Positions 1,693-56,517 of a stretch of DNA of 64,000 nucleotides are shown here, piece after piece. Positions within the stretch are counted from its first letter, which is position 1, and each line of letters begins with the position of its first letter. The stretch comes from Psammoneis japonica (lineage: Eukaryota). Both the position numbers and the translations under genes were made by a program. The DNA is taken from assembly GCA_008632985.1 (NCBI GenBank), contig QPGO01000285.1, forward strand, positions 1 to 64,000, in the 5' to 3' direction. The notes beneath the pieces are model-generated. The model was given only the letters and a program-made list of their open reading frames with translations, was not told the DNA's origin and did no database searches.

Positions 1693-2499
1693 ACGAAATG
1701 GCCAAGAGCTCAAAATCGCAAAGGGTGCAAAATGGTCAAGGGCTCAAAATCACAGCCAGTGCAAAATGGCGGCAAAGGGTGCAAAATGGCCAAGGGTGAA
1801 TGAGCGCTGATGTGCTGTCACGAACATGGGCAGTTTGTGTGCTGTTGGCGATTGGCCCACTGCCGCTTGTTTGGTGGCCCCGGCAGCATGACATCTCACA
1901 ATTCCAGAACTTGTTGACGCTGTTCAACACTCTGTCTTGTCTTGCACCCAATTCTCAGCTGTCATGGTGGCATTTGCTTGCACTTTGTCAGAGCCAATGT
2001 GCTGTGATGTTCATTGCCTGGAATGGGCATTGCAAATGGTGCGACGGTGTCATTGCGATAGATTGTTTTTTGCGGCAAAGGCCATGTTGGTCCCGTGGTT
2101 GCTCGCGCAATCGCTGAGTCCTTTGCGCACATCAATGTTCATGGACATGAATGATGCGCTCTTGCAGATCAGAGCTGTGATCCGTCAGACATGATGTCAG
2201 TGGACGGTTGGCCAAGACACACAAACATTCGTGATGAAGACAACACAATGATTCATGTGTTGAGGTCTGTCATTTGACCATGTGCGTTTGGCTGACCAAA
2301 ATGCATTGTCAAATTGTTCAGACACTGTGCATGTGGGCACATGTCTGTTGGAAACCATTGCTGAGGTGTGACACCACCTGCTCGCGGGTTTGCCAAGTGG
2401 AAGCTGCCAAATTGGCATGAGAGCCACACATTTTTCTCACTTTCCTCCACTCACACAAGTGGATGCTCACACGTTGAAACGCGAGTGACTGCTCACACA

Positions 2500-6899: not shown

Positions 6900-8600
6900 T
6901 TGAACCCGTGGAACCTGACTCTTCCAAACCAGAAGCTGATGAGTGTGCCCCGGAGGGGCTGGATGAACACCTCACAGCTCAAGTCATGTTGCCACGAGGA
7001 GGCAAGCTGACTCATGCCAGGGTTGTTGCACGCAAACGAGATGGCGGCGGGGCTCCCATTGGTGCTGGGAATGCCTCACAGCTCAAGTCATGTTGCCACG
7101 AGGAGGCAAGCTGACTCAAGCCAGGGTTGTTGCATGCAAACAAGATGGCGGCGGGGCTCCCGTTGGCGCTGGGAATGACAACCCTGTCCCAGACTCGAGG
7201 ACATGCAATGTGGAGTTTCCTGATGGATCCACTGATTCCTGTGCTGCTGACGCAATTGCAAAGAACCCATTTGCTCAGACAGACTCTGAAGGGAATGCCT
7301 GCCAGGTTGTGAAGGAGACAGTCGATCACCGATGTGATGCCCGTGCCGCAACGGCTGATGACGGGCACACAATGACTGAGACTGGCAGGCGTGCTCCCAG
7401 GAGGATGACGGCAGACTGGGACCCACAAGTCAAATGGAAGGATGGGACTGCATCCTGGGCTCCCCTCAAAGATTTGAAGGAATCCAATCTAGTCGAGGTT
7501 GCTGAGCACGCTGTGGCAAACGAGGCAGCCAGCGAACCAGCTGTTGACTGGTGGGTCCGAGACATCTTGCATCGCAGGTCAAGGATCCTGAAGAAAGTCA
7601 AGTCGCGTCACTGGAAACGCACGCACAAGCTCGGAATTGAACTCCCAAAATCTGTTGAGGAAGCTGTGGAAACAGACAACAGAGTGAGGACTGACTTCAG
7701 GTTCAAGGCTGTTGAGGAGGAAATGCGCAACATCATGCCTGCATTTGAGTTCAGCGATGATGACACTGCACCGGTCGGGTGCAAACACATTGATTGTCAT
7801 GTGATCTTTGACATCAAGAGTGCCCTCCAACGCAAAGCAAGGTTCGTGGCCAGAGGCCATCAAACCAATCCACCCAAGGAATTGACTTGTTCCAGTGTGG
7901 TGTCGCGTGACAGCACTGGGATGGCATTCACTGTGGCAGCTCTGAATTGCCTGGAGGTCCTGAGTGCAGACGTTCAGAGCACCCACTTGAACGCACACAC
8001 TGAGGAAAAGTGTCATGCTGCTGCTGGCCTGGAATTTGGGAAGCACAACAAGGGAAGGCCGGCGATTGTTGTCCGAGACTTGTGTGGTCTCAAGTCTTCA
8101 GGTGCAAGATTTGGGGAACACATGGCAGCCACTTTGCGCGACACTGGGTTCATGTCTGCATGTGAGCTGCGGTTGAGCCGGACGGCTTCAAGCACTGGGA
8201 GTGCATGCTTGTTTGCGTGGACGACTTGTTGTGCATCTCCCATGAACCTCAGAAGGTCGTGGATCATGTGAGCTCCAGGTGCACACTCAAGGATGGAAGT
8301 GTCTGCGAGACGGAAGAGCACTTGGGCGCCCAGATTAGAAAGCACCAGTTGTCTGAATCGGACGGCGAGACATGCTGGGCTGTGTCCTCTGACCTTTGTG
8401 TCAAAAGGGCATTGGCTGATGTTGAGTTGGAGCTCAAGAAAACTGACAGGCGCCTTCTGATGAAGGCGTCAACGCCCTTGAGCTTGGGACACAGGCCTGA
8501 ACTGGATGGCTCACCTGAGGTGAACACCAAAACTGCCAGCTGCTGCCAAGGCCTCATTTGTGTGCTGCGATGGGCAGTTGAGCCAGGGCCCACTTGGCAG
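6900..8600 (+). pseudogene. copia-1 pol: pre-RT region + reverse transcriptase remnant (RNase H apparently deleted)
   Basis: VKWKDGTASWAPLKDLKES, KSRHWKRTHKLGIELPKSV, RKARFVARGH, TCSSVVSRDS, ADVQSTHLNA, LCGLKSSGA, LVCVDDLLCIS (YVDD read as CVDD); ~104-bp tandem duplication at ~6970-7175. Confidence 0.92.
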
Positions 8601-9321
8601 TGCCAGGAGTTGTCCTGTGGTGAGTCCCAAAAGGGGACAAACCGAGCAGGTTTGCCCCGCAGGTGCATCTTTTCCCACCCCCAGAATGAAAATGCCGCCC
8701 TGGGACGGGGCAGCATCAGGTTGCATTTGTCCATCAATCTGGCCCAAGCGGAGCTGGCATCAATTCAAGGGGGCTGAATGAATCCTGACATGCTGTCACG
8801 AACATGGGCAGTTTGTGTGCTGTTGGCAATTGGTCCACTGTCTCTCATTTGGTGGCCCTGGCAGCGCAGCATCTCACAATTCTGGAACCTGTTGATGCTG
8901 CTCAACACTCTGTCTGGTCTTGCACCCAACCATTGGCTGTCATGGCAGAATTCACTCAAGGGCACAAAATCACAAAGGGCGCAAAATCACAAAGGGCACA
9001 AAATGGCCAAGGGCGCAAAATCACAAAGGGCAAAAAATCACAAAGGGCACAAAATGACCAAGGGCACAAGACAGCCAAGGGCTCAAAATCACAAAGGGCA
9101 CAAAATGGTGGCAAAAATCACAAATGGCACAAGATGGCCAAGAGCTCAAAATCACAAAGGGCGCAAAATGGACAAGGGCGCAAAATGGTGGCAAAGGGTG
9201 CAAAATGGTGGCAAAGGGCACAAAATTGCAAAGGGTGCAAAATGATGGCAAAGGGTGCAAAATCACAAAGGGTGCAAAATGGCCAAGGGCGCACAACCAC
9301 AAAGGGTGCAAAATCACAAAG

Positions 9322-10659: not shown

Positions 10660-11217
10660 GACGTGTTCCAGCTGCATGTGAGCCAAATCGTGCACAAGAA
10701 CAACATTTGCGCAATTTTTGTGTGCCCCCCCAACTTGCGATCGATCTTTCACCACCAAAAGCACAGATTTGCAGAGGTGCAAATGTGTTTTGCAACACTG
10801 ACAAGACTTGCATGAGTGCTTCAATGTTGTTGTCATTGCGCCATCTGTGTTTTTCATTGTGGTGAAAGATTTGCAGCACAGCAGATGATTTTTGGCAAAA
10901 ATGTTGCCATCATTTGGGTGTCACCCAAACACGTCTTTCTGCAGTGCCACTTGGTGGGTTTTCTGCCTGTGAAGAAATCTCGCTGCAAATCTGCTGATGT
11001 GCAATCAGCGCTGAGTCCACTGAGGAAGTTTGTGATGCATGTCCCATGAGGACTTGAATGCCCCTCAAAAAAATGTTCAAATGTTCATGCTCCAGAAGCC
11101 CACAAGAGTCAATCCATCCAAGCATTTTGTGCGAAAATGCTGCACACACTAAAAGATGCATGAGTTGCGCTCAAAGTGGATTGTCATTTTGTGTGTCACC
11201 TGGCACTGGAGCATGTC
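10660..11217. mobile_element. Related longer MITE (~560 bp) sharing the same TIR core
   Basis: GACGTGTTCCAG...CTGGAGCATGTC; perfect 4-bp TSD AAGG; different interior, with a second inverted copy at 45593-45915. Confidence 0.8.
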
Positions 11218-23046: not shown

Positions 23047-24792
23047 CATCAAGGAAAAAGACCAGTTGTTTCAAGGAAAATGACCAGTTGTTTCAAGGAA
23101 AACAACAAGTTGTTTCAAAGAAAACAACAAGATGTTTCAAGGAAAATGAACAGTTGTTTCACAGAAAACAACAAGTTGTTTCAAGGAAAATGTCCAGCTG
23201 TTTCAAGGAAAACAACAAGTTGTTTCAAGGAAAATGTCCAGCTGTTTCAAGGAAAACAACAAGTTGTTTCAAGGAAAACAACCAGTTGTTTCAAGCAAAA
23301 TGACCAGTTGTTTCACAGAAAACAACAAGTTGTTTCAAAGAAATGGCCAGCTGTTCCAAGGAAAACAACAAGTTGTTTCCAGGAAAACAACAAGTTTTTC
23401 CAAGGAAAACAACAAGTTGTTTCAAGGAAAATGACCAGTTGTTTCAAGGAAAACAACAAGTTGTTTCAAGGAAAATGACCAGCTGTTTCACAGAAAACAA
23501 GTTGTTTCAAGGAAAATGTGGCCAGCTGTTTGAAGGAAAACAACAAGTTGTTTCAAGGAAAGCAGCCATTTGTTTCAAGGAAAGCAGCCAGTTGTTTCAA
23601 GAAAAATGACCAGCTCTTTCAAGGAAAACAACGAGTTGTTTCAAAGAAAACAAGACGTGCTCCAGTCCTGGGCGGGACTTTTTGTGACATTTGCTCCACA
23701 GAATTCTGCATGCAAGCTCTGCAGCTTGCACTCTGGTTGATGGATGCAGCTGTCCTCTGCACAAAATGAACAGCCAAGTTTGCAGCACATGTGTCCCTGT
23801 TTGCACTTGCAGCTTTGGACAATGTGTGCCTGCCCTGCGCCATTCTCAAGACAGTCGAGAATGGATCAGAAGAGAAAACACAAAAATTTGTTGAATGGAT
23901 TGCCCGACAATTGTGCCACAAAATGATGCAAAATTTTGCCAAAGTCATGCAGAAATGCACGTGCGCAACATGCAACACAATTTGAACAACCGCCATCAAT
24001 GTTGCAGCTCAGCAGCACGAGGTCCCACCCAGACCTGGACCGCATCACAACAAGTTGTTTCAAGGAAAATGACCAGTTGTTTCGCACAAAACAATCAGCT
24101 GTTTCAAGGAAAACAACAAGTTGTTTCAAGGCTTGAAACAACCAGTTGCTTCAAGGAAAACAGCAAGTTGTTTCAAGGAAAATGACCAGTTGTTCCAAGG
24201 AAAACAACAAGTTGTTTCAAGCAAAATGACCTGCTGCTCTTTGTTGATGTCAAGAAAACCAACCAGCTGTCTCAAGGAAAACAGCCAGTTCTTTCAAGGA
24301 AAGCAACCCGTTGTTTCAAGGAAAACAGCCAGCTCTTTCAAGAAAAACAACCAGCTGTCTTTGTTGACATCAAGAAAGCCAGCCAGTGACCAGCTGCTTC
24401 AAGGAAAACAACAAGTTGCTTCAAGGAAAACAGCAAGTTGTTTCAAGGAAAATGACCAGTTGTTCCAAGGAAAGCAACAAGTTGTTTCAAGGAAAATGAC
24501 CTGCTGCTCTTTGTTGATGTCAAGAAAACCGACCAGCTGTCTCAAGGAAAACAGCCAGTTCTTTCAAGGAAAGCAAACCACTGTTTCAAGGAAAACAGCC
24601 AGCTCTTTCAAGGAAAACAACCAGCTGTCTTTGTTGAGGTCAAGAAAGCCAGCCAGTGACGTTGTTTCAAGGAAAAAACAAGTTGTTTTGAGGAAAATGA
24701 CCAGCTGTTCCAAGGAAAACAACAAGTTGTTTCAAGGAAAATGACCTGCTGCTCTTTGTTGACATCAAGGAAACCAACCAGCTGCCTCAAGG
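23047..24792 (+). repeat. Satellite B (~22-bp quasi-palindromic unit CAAGTTGTTTCAAGGAAAACAA / CCAGTTGTTTCAAGGAAAATGA)
   Basis: Dozens of tandem units; interrupted by a MITE and by copia-2. Confidence 0.95.
23654..24046 (+). mobile_element. MITE copy in satellite B
   Basis: GACGTGCTCCAG...CTGGACCGCATC; perfect TSD ACAA. Confidence 0.88.
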
Positions 24793-25040
24793 TGACAGAA
24801 TTTGAACAAGATTTTAGTTTGTCACACACAATTCTGTGTGCTCTTAGTTCTGTGCGTGTCGCGCGATGCAGTTTGCTTTCAAGCCACGTGGCTCACAAGA
24901 ACAACAACAACAGCGGTGCTGACATCACGACACCAGTCTTTTGGCTCCTGTGATGGTCTCTGCATGGAGACTCATCTGCTGTTTGGACAGCAGCAAGGAG
25001 TTGTTGTTTTCTCCCACCCAGTCATCTTCAATTTCTGTCA
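24793..25040 (+). repeat. copia-2 5' LTR
   Basis: TGACAGAA...TTCTGTCA; aligns end to end with 31409-31653. Confidence 0.95.
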
Positions 25041-25829
25041 GATTGGCAGTCTTGCTCATTGTCATCCATTGAGCGTTCATCGTCGTTGAGAAATTTTTGA
25101 CGACGCGCCCCGTTTGCGGTGAAAGCACACATCTGCCTTCTTCGCTGCTGGATGCTGGATTAAATCTGCAAGTTTGGGTTTGTCCAATGCCTCCCATCGT
25201 TGGACATGTTTGTTCAACGGACATTTGTTTGGCAAGGAATTCCCAAATTCTCAGACATTCGAGATTCTGGATTCCCTGTGGTGGACTCTGCCCTGGTTGG
25301 CAGACAAACCAATCCATCCGCTTGCGTCCATGTGCACACAACACAAACCCTTGACTCTGGCCCTGCTCCATGCATGCCAAGTCTGCTGCTTTGCATCCAC
25401 GCCGGACCGCTGGTCTTCTGCAGACCTGCATGGTCCACGAGGACAACTGTGAGAGGAAGCAGTTCGTGACACAGCCTGCATTAGGGTGAGGGTGCATTTC
25501 CCACGTTTGTCCATCCCTCCGCAGCGTCAAATTTGGCTGGCCTGATCAGGTTGTCCAACCAACATAAAATGAGAATGGTCCAGAGGTCTTGCCCACCTTC
25601 AGCTGGCTTGTCAGCAGGGGGATTTTAACCTCTCACTCTGCTCCTCTCAAGCAACCCAAAGCATCGCCAGCTGTGGGTTTGGATGTGCCGGCACAACTCT
25701 GCAGACCGGATGGGGAGCTTGGCACTTCGCTGCAAATGGGACATCATGGCCCGGCAGCTTCTGACTTGTGAGACAGTTCAAGACTTTAAGTCGAGACTCA
25801 AGCCAAGTTTCAAGTCATTTCAAGCTCAC

Positions 25830-28800
25830 CCTCCCATGCCAGGCAGCAACAAATCAATGGCCTCAAGCACATCCTGGGCACTGTTCTGAACCAAGCTGCA
25901 GACAGTCCATTGCGCTCCGCTCTCAACATTGACGGCACCGATTTGCATCAGGACCTCTTTGCTTTTACTCTGACGCAACTGGATGCCCTTGTTTGTGACA
26001 ATGGCACCAATCAAATGCCCTTGCCACGTGGTTGCAAAGCACAGACAGCAGCGCTGATTAGCCTGCACATGGCAAAAGTGCGCGGTGGTGCCGATGTTGG
26101 CAACAATCCTCAATTGTTCACACACGAGGAGTTCGCTGACTGTCGTCTCAGTCCTGAGCATGTGGCACCCCTCTCCATGGGCACAGTGCCGTCTGCTCTC
26201 CCACTCCTGGCTCATTGCCACCCAAACCGCATGACCCCATGCATGACTTTGAATGAGGCATCAAACATGACCCACTTGCCTTCGCGCTTCTCAAGTCCAA
26301 CAAACAGTGGCACACGTGGCACACCTCAATCGTCTCACAGGCCCACTCCCAGGATGTTGACTGCATTCTTGATCCGAAGCACAAGCCCTCTACAGCCAAG
26401 GACAAGGCTCTGTTTCACAAACAACAGAAGCACATGTTCGCCGTGTTCGAATGCATCTTGCAGAATGACAAATGCAAGGCACTTGTTTGTGAACATGTTG
26501 GCTCCTCTGATGCTCAAGCGGTGTGTCGTGACCTGTCCAAGTGCACCCTTGCTTCTGCTTGTGCATCCCTGGAGTCCCAACCCTTCTCATGCACCACCTC
26601 ACCACTGCTTGCCTCGGTGATGGCACCTGGAAAGGATCCACTCATGCCTTTGCACTTCACTGGCAGGACCAGCTTCACAAGTGTGAAGCTCTTGTCCCGG
26701 GTGCGGACCATTTCTCTGCTGGCCAGAAATGTGTCATGCTTGAGAATGCTGTTCAGCCTGTCAAAGAACTCTGTTCAGCAAAGAATCAGGCCAATCAGTT
26801 CTGCGCGCAGAATGGCAAGGGCCTTTCTCATGAGCAGCACTGTGGACTCCTGCTTTCTGCAGCGGCACAGTGTGGCAGCACGTTTGCCCCCAAGATGGCT
26901 CCTTGCACTCCACGCCGTGTCATCTGTGGACATGACCTGGCCCCTGACAACCCTGACAATGATGCATTCTTTGACATCAACAGCGATGTTGACGTCATCC
27001 AAGCTCATGCTGTGCAAATTCGTGGCAACTCACTCACCAGGGAACAATGGCGTTGCGTTCCACCGGACCATCAGCGCATTTGGGAAACCTTGCCCCAGCC
27101 CGCCAAGGCCATCATTCTTGGCTCGCAACACCGCCCACACCGGCAACTGCCATGACTTGACGGCAGTCAACCTGCACAACCTCTGCATTGGCAGCGATGG
27201 CGATGTCAACTTGTCTGCCAACGCTCATGATCTTGCGTCGGCCTCCACACAATCTGATGCCACAGCCAATGCAGCCAATGCCAACCCCGTTCTGGCTCAT
27301 CTCACCAGGCGCAAGCCTCTGCCACCCGGCAACTTGCAATCATCCTGACACCTGAACAGCCTCCTTCTGCTCATTCTGGAGAGAAATCCCCTGGATCTGC
27401 ACTTTCCGTCCGCTCTGACGCAAAGCCCAGCGACACTGACATCAAAAAAAATGGTCACAAATGCCATCATGTCAACAACCACAATGTTGTCTGCTCTGCC
27501 TCAACCCACAAATGACTTGCAAAGGCGCCCTCATGGATCGTGGTGCAAACAGTGGCATCGCCGGTGATGATGTTTGTGCCGCTGCTCACGCTGGTTGCCA
27601 GGTTGACGTCCAAGGTGTCGATGATCACCAGTCAGTCAACGTTCCCATTGTCGCTGCCAGTGGTGTCATCCACACACAACGTGGCCCCGTCATTGCCACT
27701 CTTCACCAGCGCGCCTGCACTGGAAAGGGCAAGACCACACACATTCTTGCGGTCAACTTGAGTGGCACAAACACAACGTCAACAATTGGTCCATCAAGGT
27801 CCCCAATGGTCTGCAGCGCATCACCACCATTGATGGATGCATCACCCCCATTGACATGAAAGGTGGCCTTCCGTGCATTGCCACGCACCTGCGCACTGAT
27901 GCTGAGTGGGGCACCTTGCCACACGTTGTCCTCACTGGTGATGACACTTGGGACCCATCTGTCCTTGACCGCCATTTTGCAGACAATGAGACATGGCATG
28001 AAGCCGCATCTGACCTCCAGGCCAACCTGACTGCCAACCTCTTTGATGGGTTTGGCAACTGTCGCCACCATCATGTTGTCAACAATGCCATGCTTGCAGA
28101 CTCCATCCTTGATGACCACCTGCTCCCAACGTCTGATTTCTTCTGTGAATGCCATGAGCGCAAGACAAATCCAAAGGGTCCCGACTTTGAGTCTCTGCAC
28201 CCTCATTTTGGCTTTCTTCCGAAGGACACTGTCCACTGCACTTTTGATTGCACGATGCAATGCGCTCACATGCCCACCAGCACACACTTGAAAAAGGTGC
28301 GCAAGTCACCCAACCCAGCTCTCAATGTCCACCAATGCAACAAACCCGTTGCCACTGACACGGTGCGCTCTGACACCCCCACCATTGACTCCGCTGCACC
28401 AGCACCCAGCTCTTTGTTGGCACCGAGTCCCTTGTCATGGACGTTTGTGGCGCCAAGTCCAACAAGGAATTTGTCAACATGCTTGAGAACAACATTTGCA
28501 GTTGTGGTGGCCTCCAAGCTCGTCAGTGACCGTGCTCAAGTTGAGATCAGCAACAAGGTTCTCGGCATCCTTCATGCCCTCTTCAGCTCCAGTTGGAAAA
28601 GCAAGCCTCACCAACAGCATCAGAATTTTGCTGAACGTCGCTGCCAAACTTTGAAGACCATGGCCAACACCATCGTGGATCACTTTGGGTCTCCGGCTTG
28701 CACCTGGCTGCTTGCCCTGATGTGGCACTGCTTCGTGCTCAACCACACGGCATCTGCCAAGCTCCACTGGCATGCTCCCACCAAAGCACTGTCCGGCTCT

Positions 28801-31340
28801 GCTCCCAACATCAGCCCATCCTCCATTTTCAATGGTGGGAACCCGTGTGCCATCACCTGGATGATTCTGACTGGCTGTCAAAATCCCATGAATTGCGCGG
28901 TCGCTTTGGCGGCATTGCCAATCACGTGGGCCACCAAATGACGCTCAAGATTCTTTCTGATGACACTCACATTCTCCACTGTTCCAACATGTGTTCCGCC
29001 CATGATCCGTCTGCCCCAAACCTGCGTCTTGCTCCTCCTGACAAGAAATCTGCTGAACCCATCGTTGAATCCCGCCACAACTCCAGGGATTTGCCGGATT
29101 CACCAGATCGGGAGGCAATCAGGATGCCCAAAATGCCGGTCTTTGACCCCAAGGATGTCATCGACTTGCCTTCCTCATGAAGCCACAAGAGGATGGACAG
29201 CACCACAGAGCCCGCATCATCAAAGTCGTTGAGGACCATGACTGGAAAATTGGAGAAAATCCCGAACTGGTCAAGTTCATTTGCTCCACCAACAATGACG
29301 AACACAAGGAAGTCCTGGCCTGCAACGACATCATGCACCACATTGAGCAAGAAGACGAGGACACTGCCCTCTGGAAGTTCCAATGCATCGTGTCACACAA
29401 AGGACCATTGCAACCCCATGATCCCTCTTGGAAAGGCTCAAGCCACAACGTCATGCTTGAATGGGAGAATGGGGAGATCACGTCTGAACCCCTTGCCATC
29501 ATTGCCAAGGACAATCCTGTCACCAGCGCCATTCATGCATGTGAGCATGGCCTCCTTGAAGCTGAAGGATGGAGGCATTTTTGCGAGAAAACCCTGCATC
29601 AGAAGAAGCCATTCCACATGGCCAACCAAGCCAAGCTGCGCTCCTTTCACACTGCACCATGATGCAAGCACAGGCATGAAGTGCCACGGGACCGCAAGCA
29701 TGCTTTGGCCCTCAATGAGCACAACGGCAACCTCAAGTGGGGAGATGCAACAGACCTTGAGATGACTCAGCTTGATGAGCACAAGGTCTTCCATGACTGC
29801 GGACATTGCAAAGATTCCAGCGCCCCGTTGGGACACAAGAAGATCTGGGTGCATCTTGTCTGCAATGTCAAACACTGCGAATGGCACAAAGCAAGGCTTG
29901 TTGCCGATGGACACCTCACAGACATGCCCGTTGACAGTGTTTGTTCCGGAGTGGTGTCTCTTTGCGGGCTGCAAATGATGATCTTCCCAGCCAAACTCAA
30001 CTAACCAGAGACTTGGGCCACCAACATTGGGAGCGCCTGTCTCAAAGCTGTGACCAAGGAGAAACTGTGCATCACAGCAGGCCCCGAATTTGGCAAGCTA
30101 GAAGGACACATCCTTGTCATCCACAAGGCCTTGCACGGACTCCGCAGCTCTGGCCTCAGATGGCATGAACGCTTTGCTGATTGCCTGCATGCCGAAGGCT
30201 TCTTCCCGTGAAAAGCTGAGCCCAAGATCTGGCTGCGCAGGAATGGTGGCCACTGCGAATGCGTGGCAGCACACTTGGACAACCCAGCCTTTGCCATGAA
30301 GAACCCCCAGGCTTTCACAGACACCCTCATGGAGAAATGCAAGTTCAAGCTCAAAGGCACTGGACCATTGGAGTTCCATCTTGGTTGCAATTTCACCCAT
30401 GATCCTGATGGCACCCTGTGCCTTGCTCCCCGCAAGTGCATTGAGCGCATGGTTGACAACTGCGTGTGCCTCCATGGGGAGAAGCCCTGCACTGATGTGC
30501 TTTCACCCCTTGACAAGGGAGACCACCCTGAGCTTGACACTTCCGAATTGCTCAAACCGGGTGGCATCCACCAACTTCAATCCTCAATTGGTTCCCTGCA
30601 ATGGGCCGCACCCCTTGGTCACATTGACGTTGCTGCGGCTGTCATGTCTCTGTCTGGCTTCTGTGCAGTGCCCTGCCAGGGCCACCTGGACCGCGCCACA
30701 CGTGTCTGCAGATTCCTCTCCAAGATGCATCATGGTGCCCTCCGAGTGCACACTGAGAAGTCTGACTGTTCAGACCTTCCCAAGCCCATGCATGACTGGG
30801 CCCAGTCTGTGCATGGGGAGGCAGAAGAGCTGCTCCCACAAGATGCGCCTGAGCCACTTGGCAAGTTCGTCACCACACACACTGCATTGATGCAAACTTG
30901 TTTCATTGCATGCTTGCTGGATGCTCTGTCACCAGCATCCTCCATTTCCTCAACAAGTTTCCGGCTGATTGGTTCTCTGAGAAACAAGCTGCAGTTGAGA
31001 CTGCCACGTGTGGATCTGAGTTTGTCGCCACAAGGACGTGCGTTGAGCAGATTGTTGACCTGCGCATGACTTTGCGTTGCCTTGGCATCCCCGCTTGTGA
31101 AACATGTTGCATGTTTGGGGACAACAAGTCAGTTGTGGACAGCGCCACCATCCACCGCACTCCAAGTCACACAAGCAACACACCACCCTCTTGTTCCATC
31201 GTGTGTGTGAGGCAATTGCCTCCGGTTTCCTTGAGCTTCATTTCGTCAAAGGGTCTTGCAACCCAGCTGACATCCTCAGCAAGCATTGGGGTTGCTCCCA
31301 AGTCTGGAACCTCCTTTGTCCTCCAATGTTTTGGAACTTT
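25830..31340 (+). pseudogene. copia-2 gag-pol remnant
   Basis: ALMDRGANSGIAGDDV (protease), VATDTVRSDTP and HQQHQNFAERRCQT (integrase), KGSSHNVMLEWENGEITSEPL, KARLVADGHLT, VCSGVVSL, KALHGLRSSG, AAHLDN (degraded YVDD), VETATCGSEFVA and MFGDNKSVV (RNase H). Confidence 0.92.
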
Positions 31341-31408
31341 GATCCCGAGGCTTTCAACCAATCTGACTTTGAATCCATTGCTGTTGACCCCTCAAGCAAA
31401 CTGGGGAG

Positions 31409-31653
31409 TGACAGGATTTGAACAAGATTTTGGTTTGTCACACACAATTGTGTGTGCTCTTAGTTCCATGCGTGCCGTGCAATGTGGTTTGCTTTCAAGC
31501 CACATGGCTCACAAGAACAATGACAGCAGTGCCAAGATCATGACACCAGTCTTTGAGCTCCTGCAATGGTCTCTGCATGGAGACTCATCTGCCATTTAGA
31601 CAGCAGCAAGGAGTCATTGTTTTCTTCCACCCAGTCATCTTCAATTTCTGTCA
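31409..31653 (+). repeat. copia-2 3' LTR
   Basis: Preceded by a purine tract; ends CTGTCA followed by TSD CCAGG. Confidence 0.95.
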
Positions 31654-32505
31654 CCAGGAAAACAGCCAGTTCTTTCAAGAAAAGCAACTTGTTTCAAGGA
31701 AAACAGCCAGTTCTTTCAAGGAAAACAACCAGTTGTCTTTGTTGATGTCAAGAAAGCCAGCCAGTTGCTTCAAGGAAAACAGCCAGTTGTTTTTGTTGAT
31801 GTCAAGGAAAACAGCCAGTTGCTTCAAGGAAAACAACAAGCTGCTTCAAGGAAAACAACCAGCTGTTTTTGTTGATGCCAAGAAAACCGACCAGTTGTTT
31901 CAAGGAAAATGACCTGCTGCTCTTTGTTGATGTCAAGAAAAACAACTGGCTGTTTCAAGGAAAACAGCCAGTTCTTTCAAGGAAAACAACCAGCTCTTTC
32001 AAGGAAAACAACCAGCTGTTTTTGTTGATGTCAAGAAATGCAGCCAGCTGTTTCAAGGAAAACAACCAGCTGCTTTTGTTGATGCCAAGGAAAACAACGA
32101 GTTGCCTTTGTTGATGTCAAGGAAAATGCACAGTTGTTTCATGGAAAACAGCAAGTTGCTTTTGTCAATGTCAAAAAAACCAGCCAGTTGTTTCAAGGAA
32201 AATGACCAGCTGATTTTGTTGATGCCAAAGAAAACAACAAGTTGCCTTTGTTGATGTCAAGGAAAATGTGCAGTTGTTTCAAAAAAGAAAACAGCAAGTT
32301 GCTTTTGTCAATGTCAAGAAAACCAGCCAGTTGTTTCAAGGAAAATGACCAGCTGATTTTGTTGGTGCCAAAGAAAACAACAAGTTGCCTTTGTTGATGT
32401 CAAGGAAAATGTGCAGTTGTTTCAAAAAAGAAAACAGCAAGTTGCTTTTGTCAATGTCAAGAAAACCAGCCAGTTGTTTCAAGGAAAACAACCAGCTGGT
32501 TTTGT
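31654..32505 (+). repeat. Satellite B (continues after copia-2)
   Basis: Same GTTGTTTCAAGGAAAACA units with TTTGTTGATGTCAAG higher-order spacers. Confidence 0.92.
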
Positions 32506-32519
32506 TGCTGTGAAGGACA

Positions 32520-45388: not shown

Positions 45389-45592
45389 CACACACAGCAC
45401 CCACACAGATGCTGCGCCATGGAGCACATGACGATCTGCCTCCAGAGAGCAGAGAGAGAGAGCTGGCAGGCCTGCCGTGCTGCAGAGCAAAGGCTGGGTG
45501 TCGCAAGACCTTGATCCGCTCTCCATTTGGCACTGAGCCGTGATGCACGTTGCTTCAAAATGGCGCTGACATGACAGTGGGAACTGCTCCAG

Positions 45593-45915
45593 GACGTGCT
45601 CCAGTCCCAGGTGACGCACAAAATGACAATCGATTTTGAGTGCAATTTGTGTGTCTTTTAGTGTGTGCAGCATTTTTGCACAAAATGCTCAGATGGATTT
45701 TGACTTTCACAGGCTTCCAGAGCATGAACATTTGAGCAGTTTTTTGAGGGGTGTTCAAGTCCTCATGGGGCGTGCATCACAAACTTCCTCAGCAGACTCA
45801 ATGCTGATTGTGCGTCAGTGGATGTGTGCTGAGATTTCTTTGCAGGCAGAAAACCCACCAAGCAGAATCGTAGAAAACATTGTTCAGGTGACATCCAAAT
45901 GACGGCAATGTTTTC
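45593..45915. mobile_element. Partial inverted copy of the 10660-11217 element, at the domain boundary
   Basis: GACGTGCTCCAGTCCCAGGTGACGCACAAAATGACAATC... is the reverse complement of ~10895-11217. Confidence 0.85.
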
Positions 45916-46636
45916 GTAACTGGGGAGGGGTTCTTCAAATCTGAGAAAACCCGAATCCATTTTTAGCAGAATCAATGCAAATCTACACTTTTTGAGAATC
46001 TGTATTTATTTCTCCGGAATCCTTGAAAATATGTACCTATTTTGAACCAAAATCTGTGGCACAGATTTTCTGTGATAATCACGGTGCACCCCCGGGGCAA
46101 AGCCACCTGCTCAGGACACTCTAGCTAGCTAGCTTGTCAATGTTAATACAATCCTTGCCTCTACATGTTTAGAAAAGATTTGATCGGATAGAACTCAGGA
46201 ATGACACTGATGTATATTCTATAGAGTTAAACCCAAAGGTCGAACACAAAAATGGAAGGTGACAAGGAATTGATAGTTCCTCCTTTCACATGTATGCAGC
46301 GTGGGTAACAAAATCCAACGCGAATCGGATCTACCACGTGTATGAGTGGAGCTGGGTATACAAACTCACTCCGTCTTCTTTTCATTGGAATCCAGAAACG
46401 AGTACGCTTCTTTATCCGCAGAAGTGGAAAGGTGACAAAGAACTGACTGTTCCTCCTTTCAAGGTTATGAAATGTTGGTAACAATACCAATGCATCCGTT
46501 GTAAACCGAGGTCTACCACGTGCGGGTGGAGCTGGTAACAATTACTATTCCGTGCCATGGCTTCGTTGGAGCTCAAACACTCGAAACTTTTCAGTGCAAG
46601 ATAATGCCATGCGAAGGCTGACGGAGATAGTCAAAT

Positions 46637-49298
46637 TTAGAGATGAAAGTATCGACTTCGCAACCCGCCAACTTTCCCGACTTCAGTTGACGCAGAGCCG
46701 GATGCATGCCAAGACTTAGCTGGCGGCATAGCCGACACAGGCGAAGAGCCTGACGCCTGCGAAACCTTAACCGACGCTGGAGAAGAGCCTGACGCCTTGT
46801 GGGGAGGGCCAGAAGATGGCGCAGCCAGTGGTGAAGATCCTGAAGCCGACGGTGGCATTGCAGGAGAAGACCCTGAAGCCTCTGGCGGTGAGCCAGATGC
46901 ATCAGGCGAAGATCCAGAAGCTTTGGGAGGAGAGCCAGATGCCGAAGCCTTGGGCGGCGAGCCAGATGCCTCAGGCGAAGATCCAGAAGCTTTGGGTGGC
47001 GGGCCGGATGCCTTGGGCGGAGAAGCCGATGCCGAAGCCTTAGGCGGAGAGCCCGAAGCCGGCGCTGGCATGACAGGAGAAGGACCCGAAGCCTTGGGTG
47101 CCTTGGGCGCGGAGCCTGGTGCCTTGGGCGCGGAGCCTGGTGCCTTGGGCGCGGAGCCGGGTGCCTTGGGCGCGGAGCCGGGTGCCTTGGGCGCGGAGCC
47201 GGGTGCCTTGGGCGCGGAGCCCGGTGCCTTGGGGGCCGAGCCTGGGGCCTTGCTCTTGGAGCCTCCCTTGCTCTTGGAGCCTCCCTTGCTCTTGGAGCCT
47301 CCCTTGCTCTTGGAGCCTCCCTTGCTCTTGGAGCCTCCCTTGCTCTTGGAGCCTCCCTTGCTCTTGGAGCCTCCCTTGCTCTTGGAGCCTCCCTTGCTCT
47401 TGGAGCCGCCCTTGCTCTTGGAGCCGCCCTTGCTCTTGGAGCCGCCCTTGCTCTTGGAGCCGCCCTTGCTCTTGGAGCCTCCCTTGCTCTTGGAGCCGCC
47501 CTTGCCCTTGCCCTTCGTTGGCGCAGGAGTAGGCTCTGGCGTCGGCTCAGGCGTCGGCTCAGGGGTAGGAGCTGGCGTAGGAGCTGGCGTAGGTTCCGGA
47601 GTAGGTTCCGGCGTGGTGCGGCGTTGGTGCAGGGTTGGTGCAGGCGTTGGTGCAGGCGTTGGTGCAGGGGTTGGTGCAGGCGTTGGCGCAGGCGTTGGTG
47701 CAGGCGTTGGTGCAGGCGTTGGTGCAGGGGTTGGTGCCGGGGTAGGTTCGGGCGTTGGAGCCGGGGTTCGACTCTTGCTCTTCGAGGATGACTTGCTCTT
47801 CGGAGGATGACTTGCTCTTCGAGGATGACTTGCTCTTCGAGGACGGTGATGGCGGCTTCGGCGATGGCGACGGTGGCTTCGGTGCTTTTGTTGGAGCAGG
47901 TGTTGGCGCATCCGTCGCAGGCGCATCTGTCACAGGAGCAGGTGTTGGCGCATCCGTTGCGGGGACAGGTGTTGGCGCATCCGTGCGGGGCAGGTGTTGG
48001 CGCATCCGTCGCAGGAGCAGGTGGTGACGGGGGCTTGGGCGAAGGCGATGGGGGCTTGGGCGAAGGCGACGGGGGCTTGGGCGAAGGCGATGGGGGCTTG
48101 GGCGATGGCGACGGGGGCTTTGGAGGACAAGGACCCGGTGACGGCGGCTTCGGTGACGGCGACGGGGGCTTCGGTGCCTTCGTTGGGGACTCAGTGGCCG
48201 GAGGCGGCGCCGCAGAAGGAGACGCAGTTGCCGGAGGCGGTGTCGAAGGCGGCGGGGGCTTTGGCGAAGGCGATGGCGGCTTTGGCGACGGCGACGGTGG
48301 CTTCGGTGCTTTTGTTGGAGATGCAGTTGCCGGAGGCGGTGTCGAAGGCGGCGGGGGCTTTGGTGAAGGCGATGGCGGCTTTGGCGACGGCGACGGGGGC
48401 TTCGGCGCTTTCGTTGGGCAGGGAGTTGCTTTCTTTGTTGGCGCAAAAGTCGGAGCCGGGGTCGGGTACTTCGTGGCTGGCGCCTTCGTTGGGTACGGGC
48501 TAGTCGGCGCCTTCGTTGGGTACGGGCTAGTTGGAGCCTTCGTTGGGTACGGGCTAGTTGGAGTCTTTGTTGGGTACGGCGTCCCAACCGGTTCCGGTTC
48601 AAGTGTCGGAACAACAGTAGGCTCGAACGTGACAACGGGTTCCGGTGCTGTAGGGCTCAACGTGACAACGGGTTCCGGTGCTGATGGAGCTGGTGTCGGA
48701 GGCGGCGACGGGAACGGAGTCGGAGGAGGAGATGGTTGGCGCGTAGGCGGTGGGGGTGCTGTCGTTGGGCTCAACGTGACAACGGGTTCCGGTTCTGTCG
48801 GTGCGGGTGTTGGAGGCGGTGTTGGTGGCGGTGTTGGTCCTGCGGTGGGGCTCAACGTGACAACGGGTTCCGGTTCTGTCGGTGCGGGTGTTGGAGGCGG
48901 TGTTGGAGGCGGTGTTGGCGGCGGCGTTGGTCCTGCGGTGGGGCTCAACGTGGTCACGGGCTCCGGTTCGGTCGGTGCGGGTGTCGGAGGCGGCGTTGGC
49001 GGCGGCGTTGGCGGCGGAGTCGGAGGCGGTGTTGGTGCTGCGGTGGGGCTCAACGTGACAACGGGCTCCGGTGTCGTCGGCGCCGGCGTTGGGAACTTGA
49101 AAACAATCCCTGGCTCTTCGTAGGCGCACAGGTGGTGTCATCTATAAGAAGATCTCTGTCCTCTTTGCGGAGATAAGGTCGTCCCGTTGTACGCTCTAAC
49201 ACCTCAGACGCACGACGAAGGATTTTACTGAAGAAACGATCATCCGCTGCCGCGTGTGGAGCTACCGAGAGCAGCAGCAGCAATGTTGCGAGACGCAT
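46637..49298 (-). CDS. Secreted Pro/Thr- and Lys/Ser-rich repetitive protein (mucin/silaffin-like cell wall or adhesive protein); several apparent frameshifts
   Basis: Signal peptide [18 protein letters not shown]; repeats [26 protein letters not shown], ~14x [20 protein letters not shown]; reading frame shifts near 49110, 47990, 47805 and 47630. Confidence 0.8.
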
Positions 49299-51731: not shown

Positions 51732-54700
51732 ATGCCGTCGAAAAAGGCCGCGGCGCTTCGGGCCTTCAAGGAGGCTCGTTCCCGTAAGAACAATGGACTT
51801 GGTGGAGTAGATGATTATGAAGTTAAAGACGAGGGCGACGTGTACGAAGTGCTGGAAGAATCAGAGTATCAAGAGTTGGTTGAGTCTCGACGTCAGCGTG
51901 AAGATTTTGTTGTCGATGATGGTAAGGCCATTCGTTGCAGGTATGCATGTACTAAATGACTTATGGCTAACTCCTTGTCGCTCTACACTGCTATAGATGG
52001 CTTGGGATACCACGATGACGGCGAAGAGCGCTTAGGAGATGAAGACGGTGATGGTGACTCTCGTCCTAAGAAAAGATCTGGGACGGCTGCTAATTTGACT
52101 GCAGAGGCACTCAGAAAAGCCAGAAGAACCAATGCTATGCTGGCTGAAAAGAAAAAGAAGCAACAGATGGATGACGCAGAAGACACCGTCGGTAACAACA
52201 AGTCCATGTGGGATTACGTCAAGCGCGGTGCGTCTTCATCTGCAAATCAACGCAAGATTGCTTCAACGAACATGGACGTTAATGTCGATTCGCTTCTAGA
52301 TGAATTGGACGAACCCATCCACATTCCTTCCAAGAGGCCTCGTCACCATAAGTCATCCTCATCTAGGCGTGCCTATGGGCGAGCGTCGCATGGCCGACCA
52401 TCTCATCGCAGCGGCAGCTCTTCTTCACGTCGTCCTCATCGCAGTGTGCTGAGTGTGCCTCGCACTCATGATACCACTTATCAGGAGCCTGACGTACCTC
52501 AAGAGAACGATATCGGTGGAGGAGACTGGGCCAATGACGACGAGCCTATGCAGGACATGGATACAACGGAGCCTCCTGTGCCTGAGGACAATGCCACCTC
52601 TATCGAAAGAAATGATGACGTTGTTGATACCGAGACGAAACAAGCACCGACCGAGACAACGAGCGAGGATGGACCGAAACCCATGGACGCGACAGATGAC
52701 GATACCAACCAAGATGCAAAGCAAGAACCTTTGTCGGAAGAACAGCCAGAGAAAAAAGTTGTTCGCAAACGCTTTGCGCGTAAGAAGCTCGGAAGCTTGT
52801 CAGCCCCAGCGCAGAAGGCTCAGGAAGAAAAGGCACGAGCTGCCCGAGAGAAAACTAAAGCCGCCGTTGCACCTCCTACACCTGTCGCTCTGGATGTCAG
52901 TGGGGCTTCGTTTCGTCCTGACGTGATTCAAGGAGAAAATACGGCTGAAGCATCAGTATCTGCTGCCAATCTCGAGTCGGTGGTGCAAAAGGACGAGGAA
53001 ACAGGGGATAGCTACCTGGACATGTTTTGGATCGACGCGACGGAACAAAAGGGAGACATTCATGTATTTGGCAAGGTTCAGCTCCCCAGTAAGGATAATA
53101 CCAAGCCGGTATTTGTCAGCTGCTGTGCCGTCGTCAAGAACAATGTCAGGAATCTTTTCGTACTTCCGAAACGAAAAGACGACGGAGAATTTGAATCCAT
53201 GATGGATGTCCATACAGAACTCAAGTCAGTTTTGCAACCATCGTGTATTCCAAACGTTCAAGGCGCCACATGGGCTGGTAAAGTTGTGAAGCGCAAGTAC
53301 GCGTTTGAAGATCCGGCTATTCCTCGTGAAGAAACTTCCTATTTCAAGGTGGTTTACGACGCCAAGTATCCTGTTCCGTCACAAGAAGTATGCAGCGAGG
53401 GTGGAAAGTACTTTGACAAGATTTTGGGTGCAGGTGCATCTACTCTCGAGAACTTTATCATCAAGCGAAAGCTTATGGGTCCCTGCTGGATTCGCATTCG
53501 CAATCCTCAACCCAACGGATCTCCGATGAGTTGGTGCAAGCTCGAAATGCAGGTGGACTGTCCCAAGCATCTTAATAGGCTCGATTTGGTCACCAAGGGT
53601 GTACCCCGTCCGCCTCCTCCTATGGTTACTGTTTCTTTCAAGCTCAAGACGATTGTTAATCCCAAGACGCAAAAGTCGGAGATTGTATCCGTCAGCACCA
53701 TTTGTCACAAGCAAGTTTCCTTGGAGACGGCTTCGGATGAATCGACGCGTCACATGACGCAGCTCTCTCTCATTCGTCCTTTAGGTGGAGCTAGTGGTGG
53801 TGGCATTCCGCAATTCCCCCGTGACATAGACTCTGAGATTGCTACTTCCATTCCTCAGTTGCAACGTATGCCCAACGAGAGAGCCTTGCTCAGTAGGCTC
53901 TTGGCGCAAATTGGAAACTGGGATCCCGACGTTTTAGTCGGACACAACGCGTGGGGATACGACATGGAGATTATTTTGTCTCGTTGTGCCGAGTTAAAAG
54001 TCCCTACGTGGAGTAAGATTGGAAGACGTCGCAGGATGCAGCTTCCGCATCGGTCGTCGTTTTCCAAGTCCAAGGATTGGGCCATAGCTGATGCGGTGGC
54101 AGGGCGACTACTTTGTGATACATATTTGAGCGCTAAGGAATTGCTTCGTGAGACAACATACTCGCTCACCAACCTGGCGGCTTCGCAACTCAAGATGGAT
54201 CGCCAGGAGATTCAGCCGGTTGACGTCCCGCGGTGGTTTTCTTCGTCCAAACACATTTGCCACCTTGCCAGTACCACCTTGTCCGACGCCCAGCTGGTGC
54301 AACGGCTTTTCTTCAAGTTACAGATTCTGCCTCTAACCAAACAGCTAACCAACATCGCTGGTAACTTGTGGTCGCATACGATCAGAGGACGGCGTGCGGA
54401 GCGTAACGAGTATCTGTTGCTACATGAGTTTCATGAGCTCAAGTTCATTGCTCCAGAAAAGAAGAAATCCAAGCAGGATGCAACGTCGAAGAAGGCTAAA
54501 TACAGCGGTGGTCTGGTGTTGGAACCAAAGAAGGGTCTCTACAATTCGTTTATTCTCTTGTTGGATTTTAACAGCCTCTACCCCTCCATTATTCAGGAAT
54601 ACAACTTGTGCTTTACCACCATGGATTGGTCCAAGTATACAGATGGAGATGGCTCTTCGTTACCTCCGGTTCCGGATGATAGCTTGGATCGAGGGGTTCT

Positions 54701-56517
54701 TCCGCGGGTTATTAAGACTCTTGTCGAACGCCGACGTGGTGTCAAGAATATGCTCAAGAAAGAAGAAAATGCGGAGAAGAAGCAAGAGGTAAGGCATTAT
54801 TGGCTTGAGCGTGATTTGCCTGTCCTTTCGACAATGTCTTATTATTGCGTTTTCTGTCTCTGCAGCTGAACATCCGTCAGCAAGCTCTCAAGTTGACTGC
54901 CAACTCCATGTACGGATGCCTTGGTTTTTCTAATTCTCGCTTTTACGCTCAGCCGATTGCCGCACTCGTCACAGCCATGGGACGTGAAACTCTTCAGCGT
55001 ACGGTGGATGTCGCACAAGACACTGTCGGTCTTGAAGTGATTTACGGCGACACGGACAGTATTATGATCAACACTCGGATCTTGGATGCGTCGAAGGTGG
55101 ACGAGGTCAACAAGCTTGGAGACAAGGTCAAGAGGGAGGTTAACAAACTCTATCGAAGCATTGAGTTGGATATTGATGGCATTTTTCGCAAGATGCTGTT
55201 GCTTAAGAAGAAAAAGTATGCTGCGGTTACTGTGACGCAAAAGCCCAACGGAGAATACGAGTACTCCCAAGAGGAGAAGGGTCTCGATTTGGTGCGAAGG
55301 GACTGGTGCATTCAGTCGAAGGATACGGGACGTTACGTGTTGAGTCAGATCCTCTCGGACGAAGACGGCGAAGAAGTTGTAACGAAAATTCACGAGCATC
55401 TTGAAGGCGTCGCTGCAAAAATGAGGAATGGCGAGCTACCGCTTAAAAAGTACGAGATTACCAAGGGACTGAGCAAGCATCCAAATGATTACCCCGACGG
55501 TAAATCTCAGCCTCACGTCATTGTGGCCAAGGCGATGTTAAAGAACAACCGGCCTGTCAATACGGGAGACCACATTCCCTATGTCATCACGGCTGCAAAC
55601 GAAGATTCATCGTCAGACCAGCCCACGACAAAGACCTCGGCTGCTGAACGCGCGCGTCACCCTGAAGAAATCGAACGTAGCAACGGGGCCCTAAAACCAG
55701 ACGTCGAGTGGTATCTTGGCCAGCAGATTCTCCCTCCTATTGCTCGCCTCTGTGAGCCTATTGCCGGGACCTCGCAAAGTATTCTCGCTGAGAAACTAGG
55801 GTTGGACTCGACCAAATATTCAAGTGTTATCCACTCTGGTGGAACCGAAGTGGACGACGAGGATCTGGTGGATTACACCCCGGCGTCGAGTCTACCCGAC
55901 GAGGAGCGGTTCAAGAATGTTGAGAGGCTTATGCTTACCTGCTCGGCTTGCAATGTGAAGAGCGAGTTTCCAGGAGTGTTTTTGCCTCCAAAGACGCCAC
56001 TACTGGATCCACTACGCTCGTTTCGGGATTGCGCTGTGTGAACCCCGACTGTCCTCACCCTGAGTTTTGGGGTAAACCCAGTCATGTCGATTGCTTGGCT
56101 CGGGTTTCCAACGCCGTTTCCATGTTGGTCCATCGTCGTATGAGACAGTACTACCTGGGCGAGATTCGTTGCGAAGACCCCTCCTGCGGTCTTGTCACCC
56201 GCCAGCTCTCTGTTGTCGGTGAGCAGTGTATGAGTCGAGGTTGCACGGCTTCCATGCACCCTGTGTACAGTGAGCGTGCGATGCACGACCAGCTCAAGTA
56301 CCTGGACGCTCTGTTTGATGTTAATCACGTTTGTGAGAAACTCGAACAAAAGAAGTTCGGCACCAAGAAGGATCTGCTCAGGGACATTTCCAAGAATGAC
56401 AGGACCACGTGGGAGGAGCTCCGTGAGGGCGCCAACAAGTATCTACAGGGTAGCGCTTATAACTGGATTGAAGCCTCCTTGTGGACAACGTTGTTTGGCA
56501 GTAGTAGCCCGAGGTAA
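51732..56517 (+). CDS. POLA1: DNA polymerase alpha catalytic subunit (exons 51732-51921, 51997-54788, 54866-56517; 1-nt frameshift near 55980)
   Basis: EDFVVDDDGLGY N-terminus, [56 protein letters not shown]-terminal Cys zinc fingers. Confidence 0.97.

Follow-up and report, generated by a model that had tools for sequence, protein, structure and literature searches.

TpA-specific A:T to G:C hypermutation of invading DNA is, in the literature we searched, the subject of one 2026 preprint on one organism, Bigelowiella natans (bioRxiv 10.64898/2026.01.13.699255, Mettrop et al., 2026). Beyond that preprint we found no TpA-erasing signature in this literature, which included papers on diatom transposons, either in diatoms or elsewhere. 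The preprint reports 302 new nuclear mutations in mutation-accumulation lines of B. natans; 231 of them lie in an integrated giant virus and a virophage, and with a single exception these are A→G or T→C changes at TpA (10.64898/2026.01.13.699255). The rate given, which applies to some lines only, is about 6e-7 per site per generation. The same preprint describes 124 clusters of TpA-poor, CpA+TpG-rich windows and proposes an ADAT2-like adenine deaminase as the candidate agent (10.64898/2026.01.13.699255). Nothing relevant on transposons of B. natans came up in this literature. Here we examine a locus of the diatom Psammoneis japonica, namely a 64,000-nucleotide stretch of contig QPGO01000285.1 (assembly GCA_008632985.1, positions 1 to 64,000, hereafter the window), which carries a long terminal repeat (LTR) retrotransposon, copia-2, within a repeat domain of 46 kb. 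We consider it likely that, after integration of the element, copia-2 and this domain were struck by a strand-symmetric, DNA-level A:T to G:C hypermutation at TpA, to which ordinary CpG decay was added.

The locus resembles B. natans in that TpA becomes only TpG or CpA, that both strands are affected, and that the changes are confined to foreign or repeat-derived regions, where TpA is depleted and CpA+TpG enriched; TpA-poor coding sequences of B. natans are, moreover, enriched in reverse-transcriptase and DDE-endonuclease domains (10.64898/2026.01.13.699255). The two cases differ in host and target, B. natans being a chlorarachniophyte (Rhizaria) with integrated viral DNA, whereas the window belongs to a diatom (Stramenopila) and the targets are LTR retrotransposons and satellites. 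They differ also in extent, since depletion here is near complete (observed/expected ratio, O/E, 0.01-0.05), whereas the preprint gives a Rho of 0.45 for the giant-virus region and no depletion for the virophage region. We additionally find CpG decay and slow conversion at YTAR (Y, pyrimidine; R, purine), and none of the terms LTR, retrotransposon, CpG, satellite, context, diatom and stramenopile appears in the main text of the preprint. Finally, rates were measured in B. natans, whereas the window presents an end state.

Three better-known processes also invite comparison. Fungal repeat-induced point mutation (RIP; Neurospora and others) likewise produces dinucleotide-specific transitions at the DNA level in repeats, on both strands, and it likewise ruins transposon genes and inflates divergence. 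RIP acts on duplicated DNA in place and halts near repeat borders, traits that the domain described here may share. RIP prefers CpA, which it turns into TpA. The direction is the opposite one: RIP makes TpA and lowers GC, according to PMC7296669, whereas here TpA is lost, TpG and CpA are gained and GC is not lowered, and the TAA and TAG stop codons that RIP creates are removed. Decay of methylated CpG, which operates in silenced transposons of plants, vertebrates, some fungi and diatoms, explains the sites at which CG stands against TG or CA in our comparisons, as well as part of the TG↔CA swaps and of the gain in TpG and CpA, but it leaves TpA untouched and is independent of the TpA process in the environmental copies described below. 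Hypermutation before integration by ADAR or APOBEC enzymes shares with this locus the clustering of deamination-type transitions in retroelements, but it is strand-biased and identical in both LTRs, whereas the changes here are strand-symmetric and discordant between LTRs, and affect satellites too.

Structure and insertion of copia-2

copia-2, a Ty1/copia-type LTR retrotransposon that is no longer functional, lies within a satellite array of the diatom genome (Table 1). Its reverse transcriptase (RT) is of the RVT_2 type, its LTRs begin with TG and end with CA, its target-site duplication is 5 bp long and matches at four of the five positions, and the approximately 6.4 kb between its LTRs encode a Ty1/copia-type polyprotein on the plus strand. 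The RT is interrupted by stops at 29660 (TGA), 30002 (TAA) and 30209 (TGA), and its Pfam match (RVT_2, E 1.2e-11) was obtained on a read-through of frame 2. In tblastn comparisons the protein P0003 (1881 amino acids) is collinear with positions 26185-31334, through a gag-like region, an integrase region, RT and RNase H. Pfam analysis of the six-frame read-through of copia-2 returned RVT_2 alone and left the integrase region without a match; the collinearity with P0003, together with our reading of motifs, points to the segment upstream of the RT as the probable integrase.

When copia-2 was excised in silico with one copy of the duplication, the 22-nt satellite unit came back in register. Because the empty site restores the satellite unit, we regard copia-2 as having arisen by one insertion, with identical LTRs at the outset, and the differences between the LTRs therefore arose in the chromosome. 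The LTR pair provides the cleanest evidence for action on integrated DNA, because its two members start identical. The first-pass annotation of this DNA had proposed that the changes occurred after integration, and the discordance of the LTRs, the target duplication (four of five positions) and the restored satellite all bear this out.

Differences between the two LTRs

The copia-2 LTRs were aligned over 245 ungapped columns, of which 217 are identical and 28 substituted, with a single 3-nt indel. The substituted columns comprise seven adjacent TG↔CA double swaps (14 columns), two TA↔TG differences, five CG↔TG/CA differences, four other transitions and three transversions. In the first-pass annotation the LTRs were said to differ mainly by TG↔CA swaps and TA→TG, with few transversions. 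The swaps do account for 14 of the 28 columns and transversions for only three, and every example string quoted for these LTRs is present in them, but TA→TG is found at two sites only and is outnumbered by CG↔TG/CA at five. The strings quoted for the LTR ends of a second element, copia-1, as showing the same pattern were also located, at 1966-1978 and 8944-8956, the ends of a second LTR-like pair of the window.

The swaps are far too numerous to be chance neighbours. When 25 transitions and three transversions were placed randomly on the 5' LTR in 200,000 simulations, the mean number of swaps was 0.54 and the maximum 5, and the seven observed were reached or exceeded in 0/200,000. The mirror control, GT↔AC between the copia-2 LTRs, yielded 0 cases in the 245 aligned columns. 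TG↔CA swaps are what would be left when both LTRs are converted independently from the same ancestral dinucleotide. Each LTR would have been hit on its own, so that about half of the ancestral TA (or CG) sites end as TG in one LTR and CA in its partner; in all, such independent conversion predicts TG/TG, CA/CA and TG/CA outcomes in the ratio 1:1:2. We formalized this in a two-rate model, with conversion fractions of 0.95 for TA and 0.51 for CG taken from the regional losses reported below and with the dinucleotide densities of the genic flank. For a 245-nt pair the model gives 4.9 swaps from TA plus 1.8 from CG, against 7 seen; 1.0 sites with TA in one LTR, against 2; 7.0 sites with CG in one LTR, against 5; and 3.3 sites with CG in both, against 2. 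We infer that most of the LTR swaps mark an ancestral TA, and some an ancestral CG, that was converted independently in each LTR.

Only three TA remain in the copia-2 LTRs, one shared and two discordant, and all three are TTAG. At all five discordant CG↔TG/CA sites it is the 5' LTR that has CG. Counting the seven CpG sites with CG in at least one LTR, the 5' LTR retains 7 and the 3' LTR 2, a difference that is not significant with five discordant sites; the two LTRs could have been differently methylated.

These differences distort the apparent age of the element. The Kimura two-parameter (K2P) distance between the LTRs is 0.128 over all columns but 0.027 over the 115 columns outside TA, CG, TG and CA dinucleotides (three transitions), and the transversion-only distance is 0.012. 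Standard LTR dating would overestimate the age of copia-2 approximately five-fold, in line with the overestimate foreseen in the first-pass annotation.

Direction of change relative to protein homologues

When 1.84 billion representative proteins were searched with the RT region, 11,715 relatives were returned, and the direction of change was read from a comparison of copia-2 with such homologues. Sixteen full-length relatives have a normal Tyr content of 3.2-5.3% and about 1% Cys, whereas the three forward frames of copia-2 have 0-1 Tyr per approximately 2286 codons each. Tyr is shared by at least 8 of 11 unmutated homologues at 20 alignment columns; copia-2 has Tyr at none of these, with Cys at 10, His at 6, Phe at 2, and Leu and Gln at 1 each. 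Opposite the 60 Tyr residues of P0003, the codons of copia-2 are TGC (13), TGT (9), CAC (10), CAT (8), CGY (6), TTY (7) and others (7), and in no case TAY, which makes 22 Tyr→Cys against 18 Tyr→His replacements. In homologue-versus-homologue controls, by contrast, Tyr was retained at 49.6% of positions and replaced by His at 4.8% and by Cys at less than 2.2%. Arg is affected as well: of 24 conserved Arg columns copia-2 retains nine, the remainder being 6 His, 2 Gln, 2 Trp, 2 Cys and 3 other residues. The codon comparison indicates that TA→TG and TA→CA occurred about equally on the two strands and that CG→TG/CA occurred too. The six P0003 Tyr positions that are CGY (Arg) in copia-2 (26185-31334) would require that both bases of TA changed, and they may be double hits or true family differences.

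The TpA-poor repeat domain and its border

The erasure of TpA extends over the whole repeat-rich left part of the window, where 101 TA remain in 45.9 kb (2.2 per kb, O/E 0.01-0.05), compared with 44.2 per kb in the genic part to the right of position 49200. This amounts to a loss of 95%. Bins of 1 kb contain 0-8 TA each throughout the domain, satellites included, and about 40 per kb from 46001 onward. CpG is reduced to 27.9 per kb from 57.1 in the flank (O/E 0.25-0.56 against about 1.0), TpG and CpA are raised to O/E values of 1.6-1.9, and GC is about 0.49-0.55. The losses and gains balance, since a TA loss of 42.0 and a CG loss of 29.2 per kb add up to 71.2, against a combined TG and CA gain of 72.6.

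The one border that lies within the window is sharp, with 2 TA in 45415-45914 against 31 TA in 45915-46414. Because it coincides with the end of the last repeat, we consider the process to be directed at repeats or silenced chromatin rather than at the chromosome as a whole. The domain is rich in repeats up to this point, and the copia-2 family itself is very abundant (8594 contig pieces aligned to it, see below).

The dinucleotide context of differences, which the first-pass annotation had put forward as a check on LTR pairs genome-wide, was classified here in six repeat pairs of the domain. Between their members there are 59 TG↔CA swaps, compared with 7 AC↔GT, 6 AT↔GC, 4 AG↔GA and 2 CC↔TT, together with 53 CG↔TG/CA and 12 TA↔TG/CA differences. 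In the 22-nt satellite (23049-23653), 15 units have CA at columns 11-12 and 8 have TG, TA and CG being absent there. Which of the two a unit carries is linked to the state of another variable base, as part of a 44-nt higher-order pattern; because the linkage means that the dimorphism may be inherited, we did not count its units as independent events.

The loss of TpA also opens reading frames. TAA and TAG are nearly absent from window positions 1-46000, where we counted 157 stop-free frames of at least 110 codons on both strands; such long spurious frames appear because two of the three stop codons cannot occur. A Pfam analysis of 24 long frames of the domain gave one weak RVT_2 match only. 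Pfam misses the integrase of copia-2 and most other reading frames here, since Tyr and much of the Arg have been lost, and it recognises almost none of the 157. In regions of this kind, gene finders and domain scans will give misleading results. The assembly has a single N inside the repeat domain, at 21078.

Other copies of copia-2 and related environmental elements

The contigs of one sequencing run were aligned to copia-2, giving the 8594 pieces already mentioned, 870 of them matching at 99% identity or more; those of another run gave none. Variable places amounted to 1141 transition and 161 transversion entries. The 40 places listed of 1302 are all peculiar to the window copy, and none of them is an LTR swap site. 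They comprise 17 other transitions, 13 transversions, 8 places with CG against CA or TG elsewhere, 1 TA→CA and 1 new TA. The eight places with CG in the window copy suggest that the bulk of the family descends from a master that had already undergone CpG decay. The TGA stop at 30209 is TGC in the other contigs.

Copies at intermediate stages were found in another element family. Among the 150 best RT relatives, four proteins from public assemblies lack Tyr altogether and have 8-15% Cys+His. A partly depleted relative, P0071, was used as a single-protein query and led to 60 loci on metagenome contigs. Because the window has no close DNA match to any of the 60, these loci represent a different family from copia-2. 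Their TpA O/E runs from 0.82 down to 0.02, with 7 of the 60 below 0.15, and is strongly and inversely correlated with TpG/CpA (Spearman -0.86), its correlation with CpG being weaker (+0.52). Three contigs (L020, L011 and L060) have sharp junctions between TA-normal and TA-poor sequence, and two (L023 and L017) are uniformly half-depleted. The environmental population shows copies at every stage of conversion.

Five pairs of a TA-normal and a TA-poor copy, 81-85% identical and sharing loci so that they are not independent, allowed the change to be polarised. At 263 TA of the normal copies the poor copies have TG 114 times, CA 114 times, TA 18 times and something else 17 times. In a larger set of related copies, several of whose loci are duplicates, TA→TG and TA→CA number 232 and 246. 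In the same five pairs CG was lost at 72 sites in the TA-poor copy and at 62 in the TA-normal copy. The TpA process and CpG decay are separable, because CG was lost in both copies of these pairs and TA in one.

In trios of copies, the swaps go back mainly to TA. Where two depleted loci (L019 and L028) carry TG against CA, a TA-normal relative has TA at 15/23, 17/25 and 15/25 swaps and CG at 0. In a second trio (L045, L058 and L033) with 24 swaps, the corresponding counts are TA 10, CG 5, TG 5 and CA 4.

Sequence context of conversion

TpA sites are not all converted with the same ease. Of the 101 residual TA of the window domain, 64 are YTAR (29 TTAA, 31 TTAG/CTAA and 4 CTAG) and none is RTAY, whereas in the normal flank YTAR makes up 19% and RTAY 29.5% of TA. 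In the polarised environmental pairs, where several loci are duplicates, TA survived at 21% of CTAA/TTAG and 12% of TTAA, but at 0/86 of ATAC/GTAT, 0/46 of GTAA/TTAC and 1/60 of GTAC. The agent seems to be a mutator with a four-base preference, whose conversion of YTAR is slower.

Alternative explanations

The explanation that survives best beside adenine-directed hypermutation places the lesion on the other base. The T of TpA might be oxidised to 5-hydroxymethyl- or 5-formyluracil, or a TpA-specific modification might undergo error-prone repair, with the same outcome; because TpA is self-complementary, T→C on one strand is indistinguishable from A→G on the other. Thymine in its oxidised forms mispairs with G, and protists do have dioxygenases that modify thymine. 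Since the only printed proposal for this signature is an ADAT2-like adenine deaminase (10.64898/2026.01.13.699255), we nevertheless regard a lesion on T as unlikely.

It might also be supposed that decay of methylated CpG is sufficient, every swap being a CpG that was deaminated on opposite strands in the two LTRs. Such decay has plainly taken place. The CpG O/E of the domain is low and its repeats show CpG loss with a matching gain in TpG and CpA, five LTR sites have CG opposite TG or CA, 12 of the 24 conserved Arg read His, Gln, Trp or Cys, and 5 of 24 swaps come from CG in one environmental trio; PMC2806351 also refers to CpG methylation in a diatom retrotransposon. It is nonetheless insufficient for the whole pattern, in which more TpA than CpG was lost (42 against 29 per kb), and it leaves both the 95% loss of TpA and the replacement of Tyr codons by TGY and CAY unexplained. 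Double hits at CpG should moreover be few, because all seven known CpG sites are still CG in the 5' LTR, while among related copies TA itself gave TG or CA at 228 of 263 sites and CpG, contrary to TA, was lost from both members of the pairs. CpG decay is refuted as the sole cause, and we give it very little credence in that role.

Editing before integration, either by an ADAR-like A-to-I activity on the element RNA or by deamination of cDNA during reverse transcription, is harder still to credit. ADAR does favour U before the edited A (10.64898/2026.01.13.699255), hypermutated retroelements of such origin are known in animals (PMC4866542), and in the environmental trios some conversions are common to several copies. 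Against this, the two LTRs of one insertion are discordant at such sites, and the TG and CA outcomes are equally frequent, whereas editing of a single strand gives only one of them. Satellites and other repeats are as free of TpA as the element, and the domain ends at a repeat border. The view that both strands were affected and that neither RNA nor cDNA was edited, already taken in the first-pass annotation, fits TG:CA ratios of 22:18 in copia-2, 114:114 in the polarised pairs and 232:246 in the larger set.

Least probable of all is an artefact in which modified bases at TpA in repeats were misread in sequencing or assembly, for although our evidence comes from assembled contigs and the aligned contigs may share a sample with the window, 870 contig pieces match at 99% or more, like conversions occur in separately assembled metagenomes, new mutations of the same kind are heritable in B. 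natans lines (10.64898/2026.01.13.699255), and misreading would not give a sharp border at a repeat end or a consistent replacement of Tyr along 5 kb.

Several observations weigh against TpA hypermutation as we have described it, or limit what can be built on it. The evidence for this diatom is a sequence end state, and the host was placed among the diatoms with one gene and a quick tree search. The six repeat pairs of the domain contain 60 other transitions and 73 transversions, which shows that the older pairs have undergone much ordinary divergence as well. Whether the seven LTR swaps go back to TA or to CG was deduced from the model and from trios of another element family and not read at the sites themselves, and the two-rate model presupposes that the repeats had at first the same dinucleotide composition as the genic flank. 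A few of the residual TA are new and not surviving; at 25787, for instance, CA is found in each of the 13 other contigs. Same-state outcomes are more frequent than swaps in the trios (20:15, 28:17 and 29:15), and because of this excess part of the conversion there must predate the divergence of the copies.

Proposed mechanism and significance

The sequence data show in which direction the main process ran, that it is specific for one dinucleotide and symmetric between strands, that it acted after insertion, and that it has a sharp border and is slower at YTAR. It is an A:T to G:C transition at the A of TpA on either strand, which gives TpG or CpA and is nearly complete. A second process, the ordinary decay of CpG to TpG or CpA, has gone about half way. 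The simplest chemistry would be a deamination that turns adenine into hypoxanthine in DNA, which is what was put forward for B. natans (10.64898/2026.01.13.699255). Targeting might be achieved through repeat homology, small RNA or chromatin state, and the process may serve in genome defence.

A broader proposal, which we put forward tentatively and hold to be somewhat less probable than its negation, is that diatoms possess a targeted mutator that works as RIP in reverse. Guided to repeats or silenced chromatin, it would convert nearly every TpA to TpG or CpA on both strands and so remove all Tyr codons and the TAA and TAG stops from transposons. It would be the same, possibly a homologous, system as that of B. 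natans, hence an old genome defence of the stramenopile-alveolate-rhizarian (SAR) lineage, and it would be active in environmental populations.

The end state on LTR retrotransposons and satellites of a diatom would show that the process is no oddity of chlorarachniophytes. Diatoms, which are ecologically dominant and include established laboratory models, would also be suitable hosts for a search for the enzyme and for the targeting signal.

Genic flank and other features of the window

The right flank of the window carries genes for DNA polymerase alpha (51960-56041), an FtsJ-type methyltransferase and a zf-met2 protein. The nearest named matches to the DNA polymerase alpha are from Attheya, Nitzschia, Cyclotella, Chaetoceros, Pseudo-nitzschia and Thalassiosira, all of them diatoms, at 49-52% identity, followed by Nannochloropsis at 43%; no match exceeded 66%. 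In a quick maximum-likelihood tree the protein of the window is nested in the diatoms, in a clade that excludes the bolidophyte Triparma (SH-like approximate likelihood ratio test, SH-aLRT, 99). On these grounds we rejected the idea that the window comes from B. natans. Two frames, 51960-54869 and 54815-56041, together make up the gene, which would fit a single short intron or a shift of frame at about 54.8 kb.

Table 1. Coordinates of the repeat domain, of copia-2 and of the other repeats in the window.
Feature	Position	Strand	Basis or remark
TpA-erased, CpG-poor, TpG/CpA-rich repeat domain (retrotransposons, satellites, dispersed repeats)	1-45914		Runs off left end of window
copia-1 5' LTR-like repeat	1797-1979	+	Repeat comparison; ends approximate
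copia-1 RT remnant	7210-8588	+	Pfam RVT_2 E 1.6e-4, below family cut-off; tblastn with P0003, P0004
copia-1 3' LTR-like repeat	8775-8957	+	Repeat comparison; ends approximate
22-nt satellite array, left of copia-2	23049-24792		Repeat comparison
Left target-site duplication of copia-2, CAAGG	24788-24792	+	4/5 positions as in right copy
5' LTR of copia-2	24793-25040	+	TG...CA ends; direct repeat, aligned
gag-like region of copia-2	26185-27134	+	tblastn, P0003 residues 121-442
Putative protease/integrase region of copia-2	27527-29162	+	tblastn, P0003 residues 560-1147; open frame 27625-28938
Reverse transcriptase of copia-2	29168-30874	+	Pfam RVT_2 E 1.2e-11; 54% identity to P0003
RNase H / C-terminal pol part of copia-2	30877-31334	+	tblastn, P0003 residues 1720-1871
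3' LTR of copia-2	31409-31653	+	TG...CA ends; direct repeat, aligned
Right target-site duplication of copia-2, CCAGG	31654-31658	+	4/5 positions as in left copy
22-nt satellite, right of copia-2	31654-32507		Repeat comparison; family as on left
Dispersed repeat copy, its end being the border of the TpA-free domain	45593-45914	-	81% identical, inverted, to 10898-11217

Just outside the domain, positions 46591-49137 form a G-rich, A-poor and CpG-rich block with 395-461 G and 94-119 A per kb. Long frames are open on both of its strands, among them a minus-strand frame of 848 codons without a Pfam match. The low TA count of this block is an effect of its base composition.

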